This document shows positions 62 through 62,239 of a stretch of 64,000 nt of DNA, one piece after another. The stretch lies in NCBI RefSeq assembly GCF_988243305.1, contig NZ_OZ547136.1; one strand, written 5' to 3'. Below the pieces are notes generated by a model. The model had not been told where the DNA came from. It searched no databases and was given only the letters and a program-made list of their open reading frames with translations. The position numbers and the translations under genes are program-made. Within the stretch, counting starts at the first letter, position 1. Every line of letters begins with the position of its first letter.

Positions 62-3674
<3,613 letters not shown>

Positions 3675-3712
3675 TGCTTTGCGGGCCGACGAGAAATGTC
3701 GGCCCGCATTAT

Positions 3713-5956
3713 TCAGGCACTTTCGCGAATGGGTTCGATTTCATTCAGCGTATCAATTAACGGTTGCGGCTTACCAATAAGATAACCCTGCATATAATCG
3801 ATCCCCAAAGAGAGCACCGCCTCGCGGATCTCTTCGTTTTCAACGTACTCTGCCACTACCCGCATTTTCTTCATTCGCGCCAGGTGGCAAATCGACGCCA
3901 CTATCTGATAATCCAGACTATTTGACACAATATTGCGGATAAAACTGCCGTCAATTTTAAGCAGATCGGCATTCACATTTTTAAGCCGCGCATAGCTGGC
4001 GTAGCCGGTGCCGAAATCATCAATCGCAATCTGGCAGCCTAATTCCTGAAGATGCTGCAAGGTGATTTGCGCCTGCTTAACATTGGTCAGAGCATTACTT
4101 TCGGTGACTTCAAAAATAAGTTGCCACGCTTCAATCTGATATTTAGCCAGCAGCTGACTGACTTCAACGGGAAAACGAGCCTGACATACCGAGGTTGGCG
4201 ACAGATTAATGGCAAAACGGTGAGCGGGCATCTTCGCTCTGTTTTCAGCCATAAATTGCAGCGTATGTTCAATGACCCACATGTCGATACTCGACGATAA
4301 ACCAAATTCGTGCGCGACCGGCAAGAAGCTGTCGGGGCTGATCAGTTCATCATTCTCACCTTTCATACGCAGAAGAATTTCATGGTAGACATCGCCACGC
4401 ATACCGGTAATCGGCTGGGCCATCAGGAAAAAATGGTTGTGTTCCAGCGCCTGCTGTAGCCGATTCATCATCGCGACTTTATCTTTCAATTCGCGTTGCA
4501 AATACATTGCCCCGCGACGCTGCATATTTTCCGGGGCGTTGGTCACGATGGAAAGCTCGGCGACCGTATTTAGCTCTCCCAGCAGCAGGTAGATATGATT
4601 CACTGGCGAGCGCACATAGCAGTAACTGACGCCAATCTGCGGTTGCATCGGCATTCCATCCCAAAAGAAACGAAATTGCTTGAGATGGCTATCCAGTGCG
4701 GTAATGCGCTCCTGGTGCGATTCTGTATTCAGTCGCAGCGCGAGATCGTTACCCGAAAGCTGATAAACATCTTCACCCGGTTCCAGCAAGGGTGACAGCC
4801 AGTGAGAAAGTTTTTGCTTGTATTGAATCCGTAGCATGATGCCATAGTTCTTAACCAGCATTTCCATGCCAGGGATGCGTAAATAACAAAGCGCAGACCA
4901 GGGGGCATCACGCAACGCGCGATTCAGGGCGCGAACATTTGGCAGATGAACTACCGGGTCCACATACGCAAGCCGCTGAATGCGTCTGACTACCGCTCTC
5001 TGACGGGTTGCCAGTACAGCCATATAATTGACAATAAAAGAGAATACCAGATAACTGGAGGAGGTTATGGTCAGCTGCGTGGTATAGCCAGGATAAATGG
5101 GAATGTAATTTTGATAGCTGTGGATGCTGATCATCAACACGACCGCCCAGAGCAGCGAAATCAGCTTATAACCATAGCGCATCGCTCCCCACATCATCAG
5201 GGGCAGCAATAATGACAAGGTATAGTTGGTGCTAAAAATTGTGCTTTTTTCATTTAACGGCATGCATAACAGCAGCAGTAAAGCACCTAATGCCAGTAGC
5301 CAGAGTGCGAACTCTTTTTTGGTGACTTTGACATCAACCTGCTGTTTTAATTGCGAATAATAACTACGTAAATAAAACGGATTTCGCACTACACGAATGA
5401 TGAAGTAGCACAGCGGGACACCAATCAGATTGCCCACCAGTAAGGCCTGATAATTGATTAAGGTCCCGAGGTTAAAAGGCATGACGCCGACCAGATTTTC
5501 TCTGCTCGCCAGTAATCCTACAAACGCAGCAAACTGGAAAAGTATCAGAAACAGCGTTGCAGGAAACACAATCTGCCAGAATATACGCTGGGAAATTAAA
5601 CGGGTATCACCATGTGAAACGTTGTTACGCCGGGGAGTAAAGACCCTGTAACCGCCCCAACAGAGAATGATAATGATAATAAAATTAGCCGTTAATGAGA
5701 GCGTTTCGTAAAAACCCAGCTCTGCATATTTGCGGACAAAAATCCCTAAGGCGATCCCTGGCAATGCCGCCCAGCTGAAAAACATCATCATGCTGATCAT
5801 CAGAGCCAGAGGCAGATAAAAGAGAAAAACCTCACCGGAAGAAATATGCGCGAAAGTATTAATGTGGGCGAAAATGGGCAAGATTAAAGAAGGCAGGAAC
5901 AGCGGAAGCCCCCACCATTTATCACGTATTTTTATATAAGTTGCATTCAGTTTCAT
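3713..5956 (-). CDS. pdeF: c-di-GMP phosphodiesterase PdeF (YfgF): MASE1 membrane domain, degenerate GGDEF, EAL
   Basis: 747-aa ORF with a strongly hydrophobic N-terminal half and a C-terminal EAL-type region; position and length match E. coli YfgF. Confidence 0.9.
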   Translation of the reverse strand: MKLNATYIKIRDKWWGLPLFLPSLILPIFAHINTFAHISSGEVFLFYLPLALMISMMMFFSWAALPGIALGIFVRKYAELGFYETLSLTANFIIIIILCWGGYRVFTPRRNNVSHGDTRLISQRIFWQIVFPATLFLILFQFAAFVGLLASRENLVGVMPFNLGTLINYQALLVGNLIGVPLCYFIIRVVRNPFYLRSYYSQLKQQVDVKVTKKEFALWLLALGALLLLLCMPLNEKSTIFSTNYTLSLLLPLMMWGAMRYGYKLISLLWAVVLMISIHSYQNYIPIYPGYTTQLTITSSSYLVFSFIVNYMAVLATRQRAVVRRIQRLAYVDPVVHLPNVRALNRALRDAPWSALCYLRIPGMEMLVKNYGIMLRIQYKQKLSHWLSPLLEPGEDVYQLSGNDLALRLNTESHQERITALDSHLKQFRFFWDGMPMQPQIGVSYCYVRSPVNHIYLLLGELNTVAELSIVTNAPENMQRRGAMYLQRELKDKVAMMNRLQQALEHNHFFLMAQPITGMRGDVYHEILLRMKGENDELISPDSFLPVAHEFGLSSSIDMWVIEHTLQFMAENRAKMPAHRFAINLSPTSVCQARFPVEVSQLLAKYQIEAWQLIFEVTESNALTNVKQAQITLQHLQELGCQIAIDDFGTGYASYARLKNVNADLLKIDGSFIRNIVSNSLDYQIVASICHLARMKKMRVVAEYVENEEIREAVLSLGIDYMQGYLIGKPQPLIDTLNEIEPIRESA

Positions 5957-7954: not shown

Positions 7955-8210
7955 CATTCATAGTGCAGGGATCAAAATCATTCCCACTCAGCTATCAATG
8001 AGAAAATAAAATATAAATAAATCAATGCCTTGAAACAAACCACTTAGCAGATACCACGAAAAATACCATGTCTCAATAATAGAGCTGTCTACAGGCTGTT
8101 CAGACGAACAATATGGCCGCTCTACTCCTAATAGAGTCCTTAGCTCGGTCACATCACTAATTTCAACATAGATGTGAACAAAATGAGGCATCAACGCACC
8201 TATTCAGTTA

Positions 8211-9725
8211 GTGTATTTGATATCGTATGTGGCAACAAAAAATGGAGTTACAATCTTGAAAGTAAGCGAGTTATCTAGCCAAATTGGCCGACTTTACGGC
8301 TTAAACAACATCAACATAATTATGGGCCGAAACGGTGCGGGAAAAAGTCGTTTCCTTCGTGATATCGAACAAACAATCAGCCAGAACAAGCAGCAATTTT
8401 ATGTCCGGTATGTAAGTCCAGAGCGAGCAGGATCGTTCAAGCGTGATGGCACCGTCCTCACAAATATGAGCGACAACCCCGAATGGCTGAGGCACACTCG
8501 GGCAGTTAATCAGGCAAGCAACTTCAAAGCTGCATCGGCTATGCTATTTCGCGAGGCCGAGACGCTTTACTTACGTCGACTTGCCAATACTCCGGAAATT
8601 CGAACTGATCTAACGCGAAACTTTCAGACAGACCGATTAAGTAAAATTAATCAGCTTCTCACTAACATTTCGCTCGAGATGGGTAATGTCGATTATGAGT
8701 TTCGATCACTTGTAGATGGTCAGATTATTGATCCGGCCCAAATCAGTAGCGGTGAATCGGAAGCGGTTGCATTAGCCGCGGAAATCATCTATTTCTTCGA
8801 CACAATAGATCCGGAGAAATTCAACGTACTCCTCCTCGATGAGCCTGATGTACATCTGCACCCCGACCTCCAAGCTAGACTGGGCAAGCTGATAATCAGT
8901 ATGCTCGACGAATTTAGAACACACGCGAACAGTATTGCCATATGCTTATCCACCCATAGTTCCCCGCTCGTCTGTTCTCTTGCCGCCTCCCCATATGTAT
9001 CAATCGGCACGAAGAGCTTTGCAGTGAATGAAATCTCATTGATACCGGCCAGCGATGAACTTCGAAAGATTGCACCATTCTTCGGGCACCCCCTATCGCT
9101 TTCTCTTAGCGAAGACGCTGCATTAATTTTGGAAGGAGAGGACGACGAACGAGTCTGGCAACAAGCGGCCAGAACATCACAGGGTCGAATAAAAATCTTT
9201 CCCGTACTAGCAGGTAGCGTAGATCAACAGAGTCAACTTGAGGATTTTTGCGTAGACCTCCTTAGTACACTCTATGACAATCCAATCGCCTTTTCCCTTC
9301 GTGATGGCGATGGTGTAATCAACGAGTCGCTTGAACATCGCCTACCTCTTAAACGCTATCGCTTACGATGCTACGCTATCGAAAATGTTCTTTTGACTGA
9401 TTCATGCCTTGCAGTAATGAATGTTACATGGGTGGAATTTGTAGACGCAGCCAAAAAATGGGTTGAGGATAATCAAACACACTCCGACATAGCGTTGATT
9501 GCAGAACTAATGGAATCGAACGACCGATTGCGTCACAAGAAGATCAAGAAAATCCGCCAACTCGTCTGTGCTATTGTTGAGTGTAAAAAACCTTGGGAGG
9601 TAGTAGTTGGACAAGCAATCGGGGCATTGACCAGAGAAGACCTTGAAAACTCGAATATGTTGATCGATTTTCTTGGAGGAGAGATGGTCAGCGACGTCAT
9701 CTTCAGGGACGCAATAAACCCATGA
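8211..9725 (+). CDS. ABC-type ATPase (AAA_21/AAA_15-like) fused to a TOPRIM/DUF4435-like domain; OLD/PARIS/Gabija-like candidate defence nuclease
   Basis: 504-aa ORF. Walker A GRNGAGKS (8325-8348), ABC-signature-like ISSGESEAV (about 8742-8768), Walker B/D-loop VLLLDEPDVHLHPD (about 8836-8877), H-loop LSTHS. C-terminal region has ILEGEDDERVW (about 9125-9157), a DxD motif FSLRDGDGV (about 9291-9317) and YAIENVLL (about 9371-9394), consistent with an OLD-type TOPRIM/DUF4435 fold. The likely true start is the TTG at 8256, which has a GGAG Shine-Dalgarno 8 nt upstream; 8211 is an upstream in-frame GTG with no RBS. The locus is AT-rich. Confidence 0.6.
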   Translation: MYLISYVATKNGVTILKVSELSSQIGRLYGLNNINIIMGRNGAGKSRFLRDIEQTISQNKQQFYVRYVSPERAGSFKRDGTVLTNMSDNPEWLRHTRAVNQASNFKAASAMLFREAETLYLRRLANTPEIRTDLTRNFQTDRLSKINQLLTNISLEMGNVDYEFRSLVDGQIIDPAQISSGESEAVALAAEIIYFFDTIDPEKFNVLLLDEPDVHLHPDLQARLGKLIISMLDEFRTHANSIAICLSTHSSPLVCSLAASPYVSIGTKSFAVNEISLIPASDELRKIAPFFGHPLSLSLSEDAALILEGEDDERVWQQAARTSQGRIKIFPVLAGSVDQQSQLEDFCVDLLSTLYDNPIAFSLRDGDGVINESLEHRLPLKRYRLRCYAIENVLLTDSCLAVMNVTWVEFVDAAKKWVEDNQTHSDIALIAELMESNDRLRHKKIKKIRQLVCAIVECKKPWEVVVGQAIGALTREDLENSNMLIDFLGGEMVSDVIFRDAINP

Positions 9726-9740
9726 GAATGACCTGATACT

Positions 9741-10136
9741 ATGACCACGATTGATCCGCCCTCATGGTATCAGTATTTATTTTATAACCCGCCTCTCAAT
9801 ACACCAAGAGATTGCGGTAAAGTGGAGCAGCATGATTACCAGCTTTATCTGGCGATAAATGATATTGAGCATACGAAAACGAAAGCAATGTCATCTAAGA
9901 CCAATAGTATCTGCGAGCAGTTCCATAAAACGATACTGAACGAGTTTTATCAGGTGACGTTCCGCAAAAAGTTATATGATGATCTTGAAGCATTACAATC
10001 GGTTCTTGATGAATGGCGGGTTCACTATAATAATGAGCGAACCCATCAGGGAAAAATGTGCAGTGGCCGAACGCCGATGGAAACGTTACTTGATGGAAAG
10101 CACATCTGGGATGAGAAAAACTTAAGCCAGATGTAA
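9741..10136 (+). pseudogene. truncated DDE (rve/integrase-core) transposase remnant, 3' end only
   Basis: 131-aa ORF whose C-terminal ~85 aa (KTNSICEQFHKTILNEF...YNNERTHQG...GRTPME) match the C-terminal part of integrase-core DDE transposases (IS481/IS3-like), including the catalytic-E region. The N-terminal DD part is absent and the first ~50 aa look unrelated. It begins 16 bp after the ATPase stop. Confidence 0.55.
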
Positions 10137-10229
10137 TCTGACAGATACCTTTATAAATAGCCGGTAATTGTCAGATCAGGTCTGATCTTATACAACTTAA
10201 CTGTGTTATGAGCAATACTGAGGATAGAT

Positions 10230-11000
10230 ATGGAACCAGAGAAATTTGCTGAAACTGCAATAGGATTTACCAAAAGCCCTCTTGGTATCATTGCACTCTT
10301 TATTGTTCTCGTTTATGGATTTGCCTCTTTCGTCGTTGGCTTTGGTAATGGCTTATCAGAGCATATAGCTCCCCTTATTTATTTCATGGTTTTCTTTCCT
10401 GTCATTGTGTTTCTTGGCTTTCTCTGGCTTGTTGCGAAACATCATAATAAGCTTTACGGGCCGTCAGATTTCAAAGATGAAAATAATTTTTTAAGAGCGC
10501 AAATAGCTACAGCAGCATCATTGACCGCCGCCACAGCAAAACAGCCTGAAAATAGTGCAGGGGTCACTGAAAGCCAACTGCGAAAAATCGTCAACGTTGT
10601 ATCCAATGCAAAACGGCAGAGTAAGCATGAAAAATGGCGAAATCGTATTTTATGGGTGGATGATCGACCAGAAAATAATGTTTACGAAAGACAGGCATTT
10701 GAGGCACAGGGAATAGAGTTCGCTTTAGCTCTTTCAACTGACGAAGCCTTAGAATTGTTAAAAACAAATAAGTTTGCAGCTATTATTTCGGATATGGATC
10801 GCAAAGAAGGGGCGCAAGAAGGTTATGTCTTACTAGAAAGATTACGCGCAATGGGAGACAAAACTCCTTTTATGATCTATGCGTCCTCAGATCTACCAGA
10901 GCACAAGAAAATGGCGAGAGAAAGAGGTGCAATTGGCTCCACTAATCGAGCAGAAGAACTCTTTCAAATTGTCATGGGTGCGATTACCAATGGCTCATAA
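10230..11000 (+). CDS. membrane-anchored protein with C-terminal CheY-like receiver (REC)-like domain
   Basis: 256-aa ORF with SD GAGGA upstream. Two predicted TM helices (IIALFIVLVYGFASFVVGF; LIYFMVFFPVIVFLGFLWLV). The C-terminal ~120 aa follow a (beta-alpha)5 pattern with receiver-like acidic positions: ILWVDD at the end of beta1, AIISDMD at the end of beta3, FMIYASS at the end of beta4. The beta5 lysine is not obvious. Confidence 0.45.
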   Translation: MEPEKFAETAIGFTKSPLGIIALFIVLVYGFASFVVGFGNGLSEHIAPLIYFMVFFPVIVFLGFLWLVAKHHNKLYGPSDFKDENNFLRAQIATAASLTAATAKQPENSAGVTESQLRKIVNVVSNAKRQSKHEKWRNRILWVDDRPENNVYERQAFEAQGIEFALALSTDEALELLKTNKFAAIISDMDRKEGAQEGYVLLERLRAMGDKTPFMIYASSDLPEHKKMARERGAIGSTNRAEELFQIVMGAITNGS

Positions 11001-11214
11001 CAAAGCCATTAAATTCGCCCCCTACGGCTACGGTTGCCGGGCGCTCACAACGGCCAGTATCTCATTTGTCGATTTGATCGATCTCATTGTAAGCACTTCC
11101 GGCTAGACTATTTTGGAATACCGCCATTTTGTTGGTAATGGCTTTTATCTTTAGGCCATAGCCGATGTTATAGAGTTACGGCCTTAAAAATAGAAGTCAT
11201 ACACTCAATGAAAA

Positions 11215-11250
11215 ACCAATAAAAAATGCCAGTCAGCAAACTGACTGGCA
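11215..11250 (-). terminator. Rho-independent terminator downstream of guaA
   Basis: Inverted repeat tgccagtcag(11227-11236)/ctgactggca(11241-11250) with loop caaa; on the minus strand it is followed by a U-run (complement of the A-run 11211-11226). Confidence 0.7.
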
Positions 11251-11294
11251 TTAAAGTTAGTTGGAAAGGCTTAATTTACTATTTATAGCCAGTC

Positions 11295-14407: not shown

Positions 14408-15945
<1,538 letters not shown>

Positions 15946-16000
15946 GATGCGCCAGCATCGCATCCGGCACTGGCTCCCAGGCCACGCCAGATGCGCCATG
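15946..16000. repeat. REP-like palindromic element(s)
   Basis: gatgcgccagcatcgcatccggc and a second ccagatgcgccatgctgg copy immediately after the xseA stop; resembles E. coli REP units. Confidence 0.45.
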
Positions 16001-16004
16001 CTGG

Positions 16005-19000
16005 TTACTGGAAGCAGGTCACCAGACCCGGTTTATTCATTAGCGTGATACTACAATCCTGTGCTCCAGTGCCTTCGTCCATTCCACACTGTTGAGAGGA
16101 CAAATAAGGAAAACTTGGTGAAGACGGCCATCCCAGTGAATTAAAAACAGTGTGCAACAACTCTAATTCATTGTATGTCGGTGCATTTTCTATGCTGCCA
16201 CACTGCCTTGCAATATCCCATTTACTGGCATCAATGATATGTGCAGAAGCCCAGTTTTCGTAGTTAATAATCGGTGAGGATACGGGATTAGCCCCGGACG
16301 GCAATTCTGTCGTTAACAACGGTCGATGTAGCGATTTACCATTCACCACTACAGTGTCTGCCATATGTCCCCAAAAGTGCGCCGAGGAAACATTCGGGCT
16401 GGTTGGTACCGTAAAAATAGCGTCCAGCGTGTCTGTCGCGGAAGCGTAATTAGCCAGAGTAACCGTCAGTGGCGTTTTATAACCAGGGGTATTATCCTGG
16501 CGGAGCGTAAAACTTGCCGTCCCATCCGCGCCTGTCATGCCACTAATGGTATTACCGCTTTCACTCAGCGTAACAGCCGAACCAGATAACGGCTGAACGA
16601 TGAGATCGTCCATCGCCACCACATCACCATACAACGTCGCCCCAGCGTTACGCGGCGATGCATCGCCACGTTTCAAAGTAAATTCCACATTCGGTACCGT
16701 ATTCCCGGCGCTGTCTTTCACCGTCACGGTAACGGGCATGGCTTCGCCTTTTTTCACTTTCGCCGCCTGAATAGCTGCGTCAAACGCTGTTGAGGTCAGT
16801 GTGACGCTGGAAACCGTTGCGCGCGCAGACACCAGACACGCCTGATAAGCGGCATTACCATTCAATGTCGTTGTGCCATCTTTCATATTGAGCGACTGAT
16901 TTTTACCATCTGTAGTCTTATCCTGCGCCCACCAGTAATAATAAACTGACCAGCCAGTTTCCGTCGTAAGGGTGTTATTGGGATAACGTTGATACAGTGA
17001 CTTCATATCGCTGAGCAACGGTTGCCGGGCTTCCTCACAAGGGCTGAGGCTGGCATTTGCTTTAGTGGTTGACGAAAAATAGGGCCAGTCCTCATTATTG
17101 TTATTGGTTTTATTTACCCCGGAGGTCGATGGCAGCTCCTTCCACAATTTCGGTCGTTCAAAGACGGTTCCATTTGCCGCTGTCACCGTTTCTGGCATAT
17201 GACCCCAGTAGTCGGCATCCTGGGCGTCAGGGCTGGTGACCACGGTAAATATCAGGTCCAGGTTTGACGTGATCTGCGGATCTTGTGCAAGCGAGACCGT
17301 AAACGGCGTTGCCAGGCCGGTGGTGGCGTTTTGCGTAACATTGAACGTCACTGTGCCATCACTGCCGGTAAAACCAAGCCATTTTGCCGTATCCTGAGCA
17401 AAGGAAATACGGGTTGCTGTCGGTGTGACGACATCTACAATAAGATCATCTGCCAACGATGAGGGCCTAATTCCTGAACGACTTTTCGCCTGCGCCCGCT
17501 GAAGCGTCACGCCCTCACCACTCACCAGGTTGCCATTTTGGTCTTTTACTGTCACGACTAACGGGATTGTCTCGCCCTTTTTCGCCGATGCCGAAGGTGT
17601 GCCGCCGTTACTGGCGGTTTTCGTCTCATCAAATGCTACTGAAGTCAGGGTAACGCTTGACGGCTTAGAGTGAGGCTGTGCCAGGCAGAGCATTAGAGCA
17701 ACCGGAGAGAGTGCGGATGATGCTCGTCCCGTGCTTAGGTTAAAGACCTGATAATACCAGGAGCTACCATTGGAGTTAAGTAATTCATAAATCCACCAGT
17801 TTCCTGACGCTATCGGCAACCCCAGATCTTTCGTTAACGCTCCGTTTGGGTGATCGTCATATAACCCCTGCAATTCGCTGAGGCGCGGTTGATATTCCAG
17901 CGAACAATCTGCCGTCGCTTTTTGAGTACTATATATATATGACCATGTCTCATTATTACCGTTTACCGAGCTCCCCGTAGTCGCTTCCGCTGCCAGTAAT
18001 GGGCGCTTGAAGGTCACGCCTGCCGAACTGGTAAACGTTTCCGGCATATGGCCCCAGTATTTCGCTTTTGGCGAATCCGGGCTGGTTATCACCGTGAAAA
18101 TGACATCCAGCGTGACGCTTTTCGAGGTATCGCGCATGAGTTCTGCGCTGAGCGGCGTTGACAGCCCATAACTGCTATTCTGGCTGACCTCAAACGTAGC
18201 TTTACCATCGCTCCCTGTCTTCAGAAGAGCCTGCGTCCCATCCCCATACAAGATTGACGTTACCCCAGTAGGTTCCACAGGTATGATGGTAAGATCATCT
18301 GCAGAGGCATCGTACGCAGCTTTAGCGCGGTTCAGCGCAGTCCCTCGTTTAAGGTTAAAGCTGGCACCTGGCAGTGGATTGCCTGCGCTATCTCGCACCG
18401 TAACCGTCATCGGGATAACCTCTCCCTTCTTCGCTGTTGCGCTGGGCCTGCCATCATTGCTGGCCGTTTTCGTTGCATCCTCCGCCGTTGAGGTCATTTC
18501 AATAGAAGCCGCCTCTGGATGAGGGTTTACCAGGCACAGCATTAATGCCGAGGTGGTTGAAGACGCTCTTCCACTTGATCCATTTAACAGATAAATATAT
18601 TGATCGTACCAGTTACCCGCATATGCCACCATGTCGTAAGCCCACCAGTAGCTATTTACCGGAATACCCAGATCGGTCTTTATCGCACGACTTGGGTGTT
18701 CGTCGTACAATGCCTGTAGTTCGCTTAACAGTGGTTGATAATGTACATCGCACCCGCTTTTATCGATATCCCCCTTTGTTGCCGATCTCAACACGGCCCA
18801 CTCTTCATTGTCTTCTATAAACGACTGGCCCGACGATCTTTCAGCAGAGAGTAAGGGGCGTTTGAAGGCAGTACCAGAACGCGTAGTGAACGTTTCCGCC
18901 ATATGCCCCCAGTAACTTGCCAGGGGGGTATCCGGGCTGGTTATCACGGTAAACATCACGGGTAATTTGTTGGATTCCAGGCTCGACTGATAGGCCTGAG

Positions 19001-45320: not shown

Positions 45321-45336
45321 GCTTTATACAGGCAAT

Positions 45337-45366
45337 AAAAAACCGCCGAATTTGGCGGTTTTTTAT
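45337..45366 (+). terminator. Rho-independent terminator downstream of sseA (possibly bidirectional)
   Basis: aaaaaaccgcc gaattt ggcggtttttt: GC stem ccgcc/ggcgg flanked by an A-run and a T-run. Confidence 0.8.
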
Positions 45367-45399
45367 TGCTGGTCTGGTTCGCGGCCTTTCCAGCAGGTT

Positions 45400-45790
45400 G
45401 TATTACCGTAGTAATGCAAGCGCGTCTCAGCGGACACAATACTCGCCAGTAACTCTCTTTTTGTCAAGCGAAAGAGAGTAATCATTGTTTATTTAGCGTA
45501 TTATCGACACCGGCCCTTTCCGCCGTCTCGCAAGCGGGCGCTGGCTCAAGGAAAGGATGTTCCGCGACCGTTAGGGCAAGCGCGTCTCAGCGCTTGCTAT
45601 CGCAGCAATATCGCCAGTGGTGCTGTCGTGATGCGGTCTTCGCATGGACCGCACAATGAAGATACGGTGCTTTTGTATCGTACTTATTGTTTCTGGTGCG
45701 CTGTTAACCGAGGTAAATAATAACCGGAGTCTCTCCGGCAACAATTTATTGGTGGTTAACAACCTTCAGAACAGCAGGTAAGCCCGAATG
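45400..45790. ncRNA. ryfA: possible ryfA-type small RNA locus in the sseA-sseB intergenic region
   Basis: 492-bp non-coding gap between convergent sseA and sseB with a duplicated motif caagcgcgtctcagcg (45416 and 45577). From memory the ryfA sRNA maps between sseA and sseB; boundaries and strand cannot be fixed from sequence alone. Confidence 0.25.
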
Positions 45791-45812
45791 CCGCCCTTTG
45801 GGGCTGCATATT

Positions 45813-46589
45813 TTAGATTATCCGGTTCTGTTTAAAGTCACGCAAAAAACCACCCCAGCGACGTTCATAGAATGGCACAATATGTTCGGTAATAAAGTGG
45901 CTAATTCCTTTTTCCCCTTTTTTCACCTGACAAATATCGATGGGTTCATCGCCAGGTAATGTATCGGTCGCTACACTTCCCGCCGCCTGAATAATTTCTT
46001 CGATATCACCATCGGCTTCAATGCCAATAAGTAAATTAGGCTGTGCCTCTTCGTTCTCTTTAATTGAACAAATAAAAGCACGCTTCACCGGCTTAATAGT
46101 TTTAAATAAGGTGGTGAGTGAATCAATCATTTGTGCTGGTGGCTCTGCGACTTCCGATAATATCAGCGACTCACCGCCCTCCAGTACTTCCTGGCTGCTC
46201 AGCGGATTTCCTTCTTCACCAATCAACAAACTGATTTCACGCGGCATAAATTCTTTACCGGTCGGCAGTTTGGCATTAAGGAAGAGCGTTTCGCCAAGGG
46301 TCATCTCAAACAATGTGCGAACGGGCATTACGACAAATGCCTGTTCGTCTTCAACCGCCTGTTGAAGTGCTTCTAACGAGGTGAAAAAAGGAATGACGCT
46401 GGTGCCGTCTTCTTTTTCCCAGTGCTGTAAATCAAGTGCACTATCTTCAACCACAGCCTCGCCCTGCGCCGCCGTACCAGGCACCCAGACGGTGGATCCC
46501 AGTAGAGTACGGAAAAAGGCCGGGCGGTGCGCCGGTTCGGTTGCTGCTTTTTCCAGCAGATCTTCAAGTTCGTTTTTTGTTTCGGACAT
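45813..46589 (-). CDS. sseB: SseB, enhanced serine sensitivity protein
   Basis: 258 aa from the ATG at 46589 (MSETKNELEDLLEKAATEPAHRPAFFRTLL); the track ORF starts 3 codons upstream. Confidence 0.9.
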   Translation of the reverse strand: MSETKNELEDLLEKAATEPAHRPAFFRTLLGSTVWVPGTAAQGEAVVEDSALDLQHWEKEDGTSVIPFFTSLEALQQAVEDEQAFVVMPVRTLFEMTLGETLFLNAKLPTGKEFMPREISLLIGEEGNPLSSQEVLEGGESLILSEVAEPPAQMIDSLTTLFKTIKPVKRAFICSIKENEEAQPNLLIGIEADGDIEEIIQAAGSVATDTLPGDEPIDICQVKKGEKGISHFITEHIVPFYERRWGGFLRDFKQNRII

Positions 46590-56766: not shown

Positions 56767-58047
56767 ATGATGCCTACGCTTGCTCCACCATCTGTCCTTT
56801 CGGCTCCCCAGCGCCGCTGCCAGATCTTGCTGACACTCTTTCAGCCGGGGTTGACCGCCACCACGGCAACTTTCAGCGAGCTTAATGGTGTGGATGATGA
56901 TATTGCCAGTCTTGATATCAGCGAAACAGGACGGGAGATCCTGCGCTATCATCAACTCACACTGACTACTGGTTATGACGGTAGCTACCGGGTTGAAGGT
57001 ACAGAGCTTAACCAACGTTTGTGTTTATTTCACTGGCTACGACGTGGTTTCCGTCTGTGTCCGTCATTTATTACCAGCCATTTCACCCCCGCCCTGAAGA
57101 GTGAACTGAAGCGGCGCGGAATTGCGCGTAACTTTTACGACGATACCAATCTACAAGCGTTAGTGAATCTCTGCTCCCGACGGCTGCAAAAACGCTTTGA
57201 AACGCGCGATATTCATTTCCTGTGTCTGTATCTGCAATATTGTTTGCTGCAACACCACGCTGGAATTACGCCTCAGTTTAATCCGCTCCAACGTCGCTGG
57301 GCGGAATCCTGCCTTGAATTTCAGGTAGCGCAGGAAATTGGACGCCACTGGCAGCGTCGGGCGCTCCAGCCTGTACCGCCTGATGAGCCACTGTTTATGG
57401 CATTACTTTTTTCCATGTTGCGGGTTCCCGATCCACTGCGGGATGCGCATCAGCGGGACAGACAACTGCGTAAGTCTATCAAACGTCTGGTAAACCATTT
57501 TCGTGAGCTGGGAAATGTTCGTTTTTATGATGAACAGGGGTTATGCGATCAGCTTTATACCCACCTCGCCCAGGCGTTAAATCGCAGTTTGTTTGCCATC
57601 GGTATTGATAACACCCTGCCGGAAGAGTTCGCCCGCCTGTATCCACGCCTGGTGCGCACCACCCGCGCGGCGCTGGCCGGATTTGAAAGTGAATACGGCG
57701 TCCATCTTTCTGATGAGGAAAGCGGTCTGGTCGCGGTGATTTTTGGTGCCTGGCTAATGCAGGAAAACGACCTGCATGAGAAACAGATTATTCTACTGAC
57801 CGGGAATGATAGCGAGCGAGAAGCGCAGATTGAGCAGCAGCTACGCGAACTAACGTTACTGCCGCTCAACATTAAACATATGTCGGTAAAGGTATTTTTG
57901 CAGACAGGCGCTCCGCGCGGCGCGGCACTGATTATTGCGCCTTATACCATGCCGTTACCGCTCTTTTCACCACCGCTGATCTATACGGACCTGACGCTGA
58001 CAACACATCAACAGGAGCAGATCCGCAAAATGCTCGAATCAGCATGA
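56767..58047 (+). CDS. csiE: stationary-phase inducible protein CsiE (PRD-like domains)
   Basis: 426 aa from the ATG at 56767 (MMPTLAPPSVLSAPQRRCQILLTLF); the track ORF begins 7 codons upstream. Confidence 0.9.
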   Translation: MMPTLAPPSVLSAPQRRCQILLTLFQPGLTATTATFSELNGVDDDIASLDISETGREILRYHQLTLTTGYDGSYRVEGTELNQRLCLFHWLRRGFRLCPSFITSHFTPALKSELKRRGIARNFYDDTNLQALVNLCSRRLQKRFETRDIHFLCLYLQYCLLQHHAGITPQFNPLQRRWAESCLEFQVAQEIGRHWQRRALQPVPPDEPLFMALLFSMLRVPDPLRDAHQRDRQLRKSIKRLVNHFRELGNVRFYDEQGLCDQLYTHLAQALNRSLFAIGIDNTLPEEFARLYPRLVRTTRAALAGFESEYGVHLSDEESGLVAVIFGAWLMQENDLHEKQIILLTGNDSEREAQIEQQLRELTLLPLNIKHMSVKVFLQTGAPRGAALIIAPYTMPLPLFSPPLIYTDLTLTTHQQEQIRKMLESA

Positions 58048-59178
58048 GGGAACAACTTTCGGGCGCAAAAACATTGCCGGAAGCGCCACCAGCGCCATCA
58101 CCCAGAACACGCCGTGACCCAGATATTGATACAGGAAACCGGCGAAAACGGTCATGATCGCGATACTGCCGCCCATCGCGACGGCAGAGTAAACCGCCTG
58201 TAAACGGATGACTTCGCTACCCTGGCGAGCGGCAATATAGCGCATGGCGGCCAGGTGGCAGACCGTGAAGGTGCCGCAATGCAGAATTTGCACCACTATC
58301 AACCACGGCAACGCCGTCGTTGCTCCCATAATGCCCCAGCGCACTACGCCGCAAATCGCCGAGATCAACAGCATATCGCGTGCACTACAACGGCGGAAAA
58401 GTTTATTACTCAGCGCAAAGATAATGACTTCCGCCACGACGCCCAGCGACCACAAATAGCCCACCGCCGAAGCCGAGTAGCCAGCGGCCTGCCAGTAAAT
58501 GGCGCTAAAACCGTAATAGGCCGCATGCGCCCCCTGCAATAAACAAACGCAGGCCAGAAAGCGCCAGTTCTGGCGAACCAACGCCAACCACGCAGACCAA
58601 CCGGTGCTCTCCTGCTGGCGGCTTGCCCCTTGTGGCTGAATCGTCGGACGGATGAGAAAGCCGAGCAGCATGGATGCCACGCCCAACGTCAACAGCGCGA
58701 GGATCACCCGATAATCAAACATACTGACCAGTTTGCCCGTCAGCGCCGAGCCAATGACAAACGCCACCGAGCCCCACAATCGCACTTTGCCGTAATCAAG
58801 CGGGAACTGCTTTTGCCACGTATTCGCCAGTGCATCGGTCAACGGTACCAGCGGTGAGAAAAAGAGGTTAAAGCCAATCATCACCAGCATCAGCCACGCT
58901 ACGTGCGCCCCCGCCCAGAAGGCGACAGCAAAGAGAAGTGTCAGCAGTGCCAGCACGCGCAAGGCGGAAATCAGGCGAGAAGGATCGCTGACGCGGGGCG
59001 CGATGAGCAAACTCCCGAGAAAACGGGCAACCAGACCTGCCCCCAATAACAGGCCGATGGTTTCTGGCGTTAAGCCAATCCCCTTAAGCCAGACGCTCCA
59101 GAAAGGTAGAAAAATGCCGTAACTAAAAAAGTATGTGAAATAGCCGAGCGCCAACCAGCGCGTGGATTGCAAAACCAT
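58039..59178 (-). CDS. hcaT: MFS transporter HcaT (putative 3-phenylpropionate transporter)
   Basis: 379-aa polytopic membrane ORF MVLQSTRWLALGYFTYFFSYGIFLPFWSVWLKG; its 3' end overlaps the csiE 3' end by 9 bp. Confidence 0.93.
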   Translation of the reverse strand: MVLQSTRWLALGYFTYFFSYGIFLPFWSVWLKGIGLTPETIGLLLGAGLVARFLGSLLIAPRVSDPSRLISALRVLALLTLLFAVAFWAGAHVAWLMLVMIGFNLFFSPLVPLTDALANTWQKQFPLDYGKVRLWGSVAFVIGSALTGKLVSMFDYRVILALLTLGVASMLLGFLIRPTIQPQGASRQQESTGWSAWLALVRQNWRFLACVCLLQGAHAAYYGFSAIYWQAAGYSASAVGYLWSLGVVAEVIIFALSNKLFRRCSARDMLLISAICGVVRWGIMGATTALPWLIVVQILHCGTFTVCHLAAMRYIAARQGSEVIRLQAVYSAVAMGGSIAIMTVFAGFLYQYLGHGVFWVMALVALPAMFLRPKVVPSC

Positions 59179-59337
59179 GAGTCCCTCCCGTCAGGAGGCG
59201 TTAGTCTGGAGTTAATCGAATGTTGGTGCAAGTTGAAAAATAAGAATATTCGAGCCTGCTTCCCGATGTCTGTAACGCCAGTTCACAAGCACTCAAAAAC
59301 TGCGATCCGCGACGCATGTTGCAAAAATAATGCGTAA

Positions 59338-60228
59338 TTATGCCGTTACGCTTGCCAAACGTTCCTGCACAATGACGATGAAATCGCGTAATGCCGGCTT
59401 CATCTCCCCTTTCTTCCACGCCATCAGTAAAGCAATGGAAGGCACATTTCCGGCAATGGGTCGAAATACCACCTGGCCGGTATTAAAATTATTCATATAA
59501 CCGGGTATCAAAGTGACGCCCAGCCCCATCCCCACCAGATTCATGGTCACCAGAATATTCGTTGCCACCTGGACGATATTTGGCTGGCTGTTTTCTTGCG
59601 CAAACCACGCTTTAACGATCGGCGCAAGCGAACCGGAATACGCTGGATCAGTACTGACGAAATTCACGCCATCCAGTTGCGCGGCAGTGATCTCTTTTTC
59701 ATGTGCTAAAGGGTGATCAACCGGTAACACCACCACTAATGGTTCGTCAAAAAGCTCCAGATAATCAATCTCCGGGCTATAAACAGGATGGCGCATTAAG
59801 CCGACGTCGAGTTCACCACGGCGAATTTTTTCTTCCTGTTCCGTGGTGATTAAACTCACCAGCTCAATTAAGGTGTCTGGCTGTCTGAGACGAAACATCG
59901 GTAATACTTTTGGCAGTAAATTCACTTCCGCCGATGGCACAAAGCCAATGGTTAATTGTCTGTCTTCCTGAACAATTTTCCGCGCCCGTAATTTGGCATT
60001 TTCCGCTTGTTCGAGGATTGCCAGCGCGTCCTGGAGAAAACATTCTCCCGCCGCCGTCAACGCGACTTTGCGCTTATCCCTCACCAGCAACGGAACACCG
60101 ATACAGTTTTCAAGATCGCGGATCTGGCTGCTTAACGAAGGCTGTGAGGTATGCAGTTTTTCCGCCGCACGGGTAAAGTTCAGTGCCTGCGCCACTGCGA
60201 CGAAATAGCGTAAATGTCGTAGTTCCAT
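59338..60228 (-). CDS. hcaR: LysR-type transcriptional activator HcaR
   Basis: 296 aa from the ATG at 60228 (MELRHLRYFVAVAQALNFTRAAEKLHTSQPSLSSQIRDLE, HTH); the track ORF extends 31 codons upstream. Confidence 0.93.
   Translation of the reverse strand: MELRHLRYFVAVAQALNFTRAAEKLHTSQPSLSSQIRDLENCIGVPLLVRDKRKVALTAAGECFLQDALAILEQAENAKLRARKIVQEDRQLTIGFVPSAEVNLLPKVLPMFRLRQPDTLIELVSLITTEQEEKIRRGELDVGLMRHPVYSPEIDYLELFDEPLVVVLPVDHPLAHEKEITAAQLDGVNFVSTDPAYSGSLAPIVKAWFAQENSQPNIVQVATNILVTMNLVGMGLGVTLIPGYMNNFNTGQVVFRPIAGNVPSIALLMAWKKGEMKPALRDFIVIVQERLASVTA

Positions 60229-62239
<2,011 letters not shown>

Follow-up and report, generated by a model that had tools for sequence, protein, structure and literature searches.

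The shared 3' end of csiE and hcaT

The stretch of DNA analysed here (64,000 nucleotides, hereafter the window) contains the genes csiE and hcaT in tail-to-tail orientation, with coding sequences that run into each other at their 3' ends:

56767-58047, + strand: csiE coding sequence, 426 aa, a stationary-phase-inducible PRD-domain protein; stop codon TGA at 58045-58047
59178-58039, - strand: hcaT coding sequence, 379 aa, an MFS transporter; stop codon TGA, the reverse complement of 58039-58041
58039-58047, both strands: tail-to-tail overlap of csiE and hcaT, 9 bp, TCAGCATGA

Direct reading of the window, together with the list of its open reading frames, showed that the + frame ends ...ATG CTC GAA TCA GCA TGA and the - frame ...CCC TCA TGC TGA; TCAGCATGA is read as Ser-Ala-stop on the + strand and as Ser-Cys-stop on the - strand. 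Within the overlap the two genes share their codon boundaries, each TGA faces a TCA serine codon of its partner and, as expected of convergent overlaps of coding sequences, both stop codons lie within the opposite reading frame. Of the 426 residues of CsiE, 1-425 are covered by the NCBIfam family NF008597 (777 bits), and residues 1-379 of HcaT by TIGR00902, the 3-phenylpropionate MFS transporter family (707.6 bits); HcaT also matches NF008346 with 624.5 bits. The Pfam domains found are PRD in CsiE and MFS in HcaT. As the stop codons are set by the reading frames, the overlap is independent of annotation choices. The preliminary description of this DNA had claimed that the two genes share their last 9 bp, and the sequence, the reading frame list and the RefSeq coordinates all place the overlap at 58039-58047.

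That description had suggested a comparison with other E. coli genomes and had considered that a sequencing or annotation difference shifting either stop codon could remove the overlap. We found the csiE-hcaT locus in 5424 out of 5426 complete E. coli genomes, once in each, and a 61-bp segment with the junction at its centre was identical in 5054 of the 5424. MG1655 has the same 9-bp overlap, with csiE at 2665435..2666715 and hcaT at 2666707..2667846 (NC_000913.3), and all seven RefSeq records inspected, including those of ETEC1738, a K-12 derivative, WL297 (the most divergent E. coli match), MG1655 and two genomes with variant junctions, are annotated alike by PGAP/RefSeq, so a shift of the feared kind was not found among them. 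ETEC1738 and the window are 99.8% identical over 601 bases across the junction. Among the aligned Escherichia sequences the overlap is invariant except in L005, a divergent "E. coli" lineage with a csiE 88% identical, where a 3-bp TAA insertion abolishes the overlap and the genes abut.

This insertion is the one observation that could be cited for regarding the overlap as strain-specific or as an artefact of annotation or sequencing. Against such a reading stand stop positions that do not depend on gene calling, family profiles that both proteins match to their last residues, the identity of the junction across the complete genomes and the uniform RefSeq annotation; it is refuted, and we assign it practically no probability. 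The variability of the junction within Escherichia falls at the 13.5th percentile of 60-bp windows and matches that of the generally conserved hcaT side. The junction is thus not unusually conserved, and this test showed no extra sequence constraint on it.

Termination at and beyond the junction

From the lack of space between the genes, the preliminary description had concluded that there is no room for independent terminators and that either transcriptional interference or a shared bidirectional termination signal is implied. Bidirectional intrinsic terminators between convergent genes were reportedly described by Ju, Li and Liu in 2019, a study cited in PMC7815308. At the csiE/hcaT junction, no shared or bidirectional terminator was found by pattern scan, folding, RNAalifold or Rfam. 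The pattern scan gave nothing downstream of the csiE stop or of the hcaT stop, and its single match near the junction, where 0.3 are expected per 300 bp, lies ahead of a stop codon:

58066-58093, - strand: weak terminator-like match with a 5-bp stem and an 8-nt loop, followed by AATGTTTTTG; within hcaT, ahead of its stop

We rejected this element as the terminator of hcaT and consider it a chance match; an hcaT mRNA ending there would lack its stop codon. The scan proved insensitive, missing the evident hairpins at our control junctions (no match at ppx/pdeF and matches outside the hairpin at the other two), and since its negative result is therefore weak alone, we relied on the z-scores of RNA folds instead. 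RNA segments of 120-146 nt spanning or following each stop codon folded about as well as their dinucleotide shuffles, with z-scores of -0.38, -0.69, +0.79 and -0.36. In one and the same test, the csiE/hcaT junction had a z-score of -0.71, whereas three other convergent junctions of the window, used as positive controls and each with a strong intergenic hairpin, scored -3.79 (ppx/pdeF, window 3655-3735), -2.95 (xseA/large adhesin, window 15930-16020, REP-like in look) and -1.97 (timP/sseB, window 45765-45835). Nor did RNAalifold recover a conserved structure across 19 species (-0.58 kcal/mol downstream of csiE and -3.59 kcal/mol downstream of hcaT). Rfam at a permissive threshold gave no genuine match at the junction and one chance snoRNA match, and an inverted-repeat search found short GC palindromes inside coding sequences only and none at the junction. 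With no intergenic space and no strong hairpin at the junction, the csiE and hcaT transcripts must overlap.

Published Term-seq data locate the end of one of them. Adams et al. 2021 (PMC7815308, Supplementary file 1) list a csiE 3' end at MG1655 2666762 (+), with an average of 1664 reads and only in the sheet for LB at OD600 2.0, classed as "primary" for csiE and "antisense" to hcaT. The sequence listed with each end covers -50 to +10 around it, a convention that we checked against the thrL row and the definition of "primary" in the paper. Placed on the annotation of NC_000913.3, this position is 47 nt beyond the stop codon of csiE and 56 nt into the hcaT coding sequence, and it corresponds to position 58094 of the window. 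The same tables, covering three growth conditions, list no 3' end for hcaT. The statement of the preliminary description that there is no room for independent terminators holds for the intergenic space, which is absent, but not for transcript ends, which can lie within the opposing coding sequence, as that of csiE does. The following features surround the mapped end:

58048-58094, + strand: csiE 3' UTR, antisense to the last hcaT codons, defined by the K-12 Term-seq end
58058-58095, + strand: a pair of small neighbouring hairpins, UUC.GGCG...UGCC.GAA and GCGC-CACCA-GCGC, which stop at the mapped 3' end

The end falls at the 3' edge of the GCGC-CACCA-GCGC hairpin and is followed by CCAUCACCCAGAACACGCC, with no U-tract. 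The hairpin has a folding energy of -4.7 kcal/mol alone and of -11.8 kcal/mol with its neighbour, the pair is no better than shuffled sequence (z -0.2 to -0.6), and it was not recovered by RNAalifold as a conserved structure across species.

The position of the end bears on the idea that a bidirectional intrinsic terminator, placed within coding sequence near the junction, stops both transcripts. Position 58094 abuts the same small GC-rich hairpin that the simple scan reported with a T-run on the - strand (58093-58066), and an A-tract, CAAAAACA, lies on its upstream side. However, the + strand hairpin is followed by CCAUCACCC and not by a U-tract, so an A-tract upstream combined with a U-tract downstream is not seen, and the sole T-run near the junction, at 58075-58066 on the - strand, precedes the hcaT stop codon, where termination would yield a non-stop mRNA. 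The stem of 4-5 bp does not stand out from shuffled sequence, and a stable GC-rich stem-loop is missing from the junction. Term-seq lists an end on the + strand alone, with none for hcaT in any of the three growth conditions, and thus no pair of 3' ends flanks the hairpin. The lack of conservation across the 19 species and the far stronger hairpins at genuine convergent junctions in the window point the same way. The csiE-hcaT pair resembles the bidirectional intrinsic terminators found between convergent genes (Wang et al. 2022, bioRxiv 10.1101/2022.10.23.513370) in being convergent with very little space between the genes, but it lacks their GC-rich stem-loop flanked by A- and U-tracts, its structure does not rise above the shuffled background and its mapped 3' end is on one strand only. 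The shared signal suggested in the preliminary description is largely refuted, and we hold it to be very improbable.

We considered Rho-dependent termination as the source of the csiE end. Composition profiles of the read-through strands pointed to three candidate regions:

58095-58177, + strand: candidate Rho-loading region, C-rich and G-poor, C/G about 1.3-1.4, directly after the csiE 3' end
58282-58372, + strand: second candidate Rho site, with the greatest excess of C over G on the strand read through from csiE, C/G 2.1-2.2
57674-57790, - strand: candidate hcaT Rho region, where C first exceeds G on the strand read through from hcaT, C/G up to 1.9

Untranslated RNA that is rich in C and poor in G, as expected of Rho terminators, thus follows the csiE stop codon in the composition profile. 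The tract at 58282-58372 lies +235 to +325 from the csiE stop and reaches about the 97th-99th percentile of the window. Past the hcaT stop, the first approximately 140 nt are G-rich (C/G 0.43-0.67), and C-rich sequence is not reached until about +250. Dar & Sorek 2018 (PMC6061677) describe Rho-dependent transcripts that end just past stem-loops without U-tracts, with rut sites directly downstream. The csiE end resembles such ends, trimmed back to a protective stem-loop, in its position at the edge of a stem-loop without a U-tract, in the C-rich sequence directly after it and in downstream RNA that is untranslated and antisense; it differs in that its stem-loop is weak and that its Rho dependence is inferred here. 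Given the weak hairpin without a U-tract and the C-rich sequence behind it, our analysis suggests Rho-type termination followed by trimming for csiE. The trimming step has to be assumed because +47 is too near the stop codon for Rho both to load after the stop and to terminate there. A similar end within csiE is probable for the hcaT transcript. In the bicyclomycin data that Adams et al. collected at OD 0.5, neither csiE nor hcaT is listed, and the csiE end was not detected at that early stage, nor in Term-seq at LB OD 0.4 (PMC7815308).

Evolution of the junction and its neighbourhood

Convergent overlaps of coding sequences are a well-described class. E. coli has been reported to contain 58 (Lillo & Krakauer 2007, PMC2174442) or 75 (Huvet & Stumpf 2014, PMC4161906) of them. 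The former authors noted that the terminators of such genes must sit inside the coding sequence of the neighbour and predicted intrinsic terminators in only 20% of the genes concerned (PMC2174442). To follow the csiE-hcaT junction beyond E. coli, we scanned for CsiE in one genome per GTDB species and located both stop codons at each of the resulting 36 loci:

9-bp overlap, 10 loci: Escherichia including E. albertii and E. whittamii, Citrobacter amalonaticus/sedlakii, Pseudenterobacter, Intestinirhabdus
6-bp overlap, 5 loci: Salmonella arizonae/diarizonae (TCATGA) and some Citrobacter (TCATAG)
4-bp overlap, 8 loci: Kosakonia, Leclercia, Pseudescherichia, Silvania, Cedecea colo and others
14-bp overlap, 7 loci: Buttiauxella
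0 bp, genes abutting, 2 loci: Enterobacter soli and the divergent "E. coli" lineage with the TAA insertion
Spacer of 38, 89 or 186 bp, 3 loci: L023, L024 and L033
No hcaT nearby, 1 locus: L029

The junction measures 0-14 bp in 32 of the 36 enterobacterial species, and spacers occur only where palindromic repeats of REP or ERIC type, recognised by eye, have been inserted (3 of 36). The inserted repeats span 4237-4274 in L023, 4237-4325 in L024 and 4152-4337 in L033, and the last of them contains AAGTAAGTGACTGGGGTGA. REP-like insertions split the junction in Cedecea sulfonylureivorans and Dryocola, and an ERIC-like insertion does so in Buttiauxella sp. A111. These split junctions are natural variants with an inserted terminator or spacer that can be used for comparison.

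The conserved protein cores end in ...IRKMLE (CsiE) and ...LRPKV (HcaT), only about 15 bp apart, and the overlap always falls within the variable tail residues past the cores (tails of 0-2 and 2-9 residues, respectively). By our own estimate, each frame has a chance of only approximately 21% of reaching a stop within five codons; with the cores this close, the overlap is what random placement of stop codons would give. Both its length (0, 4, 6, 9 or 14 bp) and the positions of the stops shift among relatives, as they do in overlaps arising by stop-codon drift (PMC2174442, PMC4161906). The csiE-hcaT pair shares further properties with these: each stop falls within the opposing gene, the overlap is a short one confined to dispensable C-terminal codons, its length varies among relatives when the overlapping forms are compared (4, 6, 9 or 14 bp), and no intrinsic terminator is predicted, as in about 80% of such E. 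coli genes. It is 9 bp long and in phase, compared with the modal 4-bp form (CTAA/TTAA/CTAG/TTAG), which is present at the same junction in several other genera. Judged from these alignments, the pattern fits neutral drift of stop codons at a junction that would never have had a spacer, and not a conserved cis-element. The spacer-free junction itself is kept in at least 12 genera, which could reflect selection rather than neutrality.

The surroundings of hcaT vary more widely. Its orthologue lies tail to tail with csiE in at least 12 genera (window 58039-60321 compared with loci L004-L039), whereas hcaR and hcaE adjoin it only in E. coli and in one other Escherichia lineage (L007) among the loci compared. 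In Salmonella arizonae hcaT is directly followed by glyA, and in E. albertii by a DoxX/YphA-like gene. Since the pairing is found in many genera without an adjoining hca cluster, it looks older than the hca adjacency, and the cluster may have been gained by insertion in the lineage of E. coli or, alternatively, lost in the others. The label "3-phenylpropionate transporter" of HcaT may derive mainly from the neighbouring genes in E. coli.

Strain-level variation was also seen at two other places in the window. Between yfgI and guaA there is a strain-variable island (window 7990-11293) with an AAA_15/AAA_21 ATPase gene at 8211-9725 that has weak PADLOC matches to the PDC-M01A, AriA, PtuA and GajA types, an rve_3 integrase fragment at 9741-10136 and a receiver-domain reading frame at 10230-11000. 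ETEC1738 carries two DUF262 genes in the same slot, a pattern suggestive of a small defence-gene hotspot. In ETEC1738, about 680 bp with timP and a fragment of sseB are also duplicated in tandem; the window has a single copy (45333-45896).

Overlapping transcripts and their possible regulatory weight

The csiE-hcaT pair is named among the 165 convergent excludons of MG1655 reported by ExcludonFinder (Sanmartin et al. 2025, NAR, PMC12288877), a list restricted to excludons detected in half or more of 58 RNA-seq samples of that strain. As adjacent genes on opposite strands with overlapping transcripts, the two genes have the configuration by which excludons are recognised (ExcludonFinder Table 1 and the Term-seq literature), and they resemble the other listed pairs in the overlapping 3' ends of their convergent transcripts. 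The defining outcome of excludons is mutually exclusive expression with RNase III processing, whereas the assignment of csiE-hcaT reflects transcript overlap, and this overlap is forced by that of the coding sequences. With the overlap present in the reference annotation, the pair in the excludon catalogue and the csiE 3' end in the Term-seq table, the finding is already on record, and the overlap is an ordinary, catalogued member of a well-described class.

Selection might nevertheless keep the junction free of a terminator for a regulatory purpose, so that transcription of csiE in stationary phase and transcription of hcaT oppose each other through head-on collisions of polymerases, RNase III cleavage of the 3'-overlapping duplex, or both. 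Consistent with this, the pair is among the 165 excludons, Term-seq indicates a transcript overlap of 56 nt or more (PMC7815308), the convergent adjacency with a junction of 0-14 bp is kept in 32 of the 36 species and occurs also in genera without the adjoining hca cluster, and excludon pairs in general show higher synteny, according to the authors of ExcludonFinder (PMC12288877). The excludon call is automatic, however, for overlapping coding sequences once both are transcribed and is silent on regulation, and the length and sequence of the overlap change freely between genera. Moreover, hcaT is a validated and stably expressed reference gene for RT-qPCR, and the low read count of the csiE 3' end (1664) implies few collisions. 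Capture of double-stranded RNA with p19 in K-12 (Huang et al. 2020) revealed an RNase III-type cluster over the first approximately 665 nt of csiE (window 56770-57433), with no hcaT entry among the entries listed; among these, the cluster is confined to that part of csiE, more than 600 nt from the junction. Antisense start sites within csiE, at about 56890, 57268 and 57467 of the window, feed the cluster and are unrelated to the hcaT junction.

The stable expression of hcaT, the lack of a dsRNA cluster at the junction among the listed entries and the low signal of the csiE end argue against strong interference between the genes, the other consequence named in the preliminary description. Both genes are weakly transcribed and the zone they share measures tens to a few hundred nucleotides, so that polymerases would be expected to collide head-on only rarely. 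We accordingly regard a functional excludon as unlikely. A more specific variant would have the junction persist throughout the history of this enterobacterial clade because antisense read-through couples the PRD-domain protein CsiE to HcaT, making the pair a conserved antisense-regulated module; if that were true, the real partner of hcaT would be csiE and not the hca genes, but we give this idea only a slim chance.

We consider it quite probable that the locus as a whole is explained as an ordinary short overlap of two unrelated convergent genes, without a terminator, with factor-dependent transcript ends and with little regulation. The CsiE and HcaT frames would run through a few dispensable tail codons until each meets a stop; in Escherichia the stops lie 9 bp past each other. 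With no intrinsic or bidirectional terminator at the junction, each RNA polymerase would continue into the opposing gene in antisense direction. For csiE, the most likely sequel would be Rho termination of the untranslated RNA somewhat downstream and 3'-to-5' trimming back to the hairpin, and the hcaT transcript would probably end in the same manner within csiE. The overlap of sense and antisense transcripts by at least 56 nt would then be a by-product of the tight junction, with at most a small regulatory effect.

The overlap carries little weight as a discovery and has some practical value. Because the genes overlap, a misplaced primer for the Keio csiE deletion truncates hcaT (LI-Detector, PMC9431181). 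As hcaT is a popular qPCR reference, it is also relevant that assays of its 3' end that are not strand-specific can pick up read-through from csiE in stationary phase. The pair can be used as a natural test case for how E. coli transcripts end within an opposing gene, and it illustrates the long persistence of a convergent junction that has no intergenic terminator.
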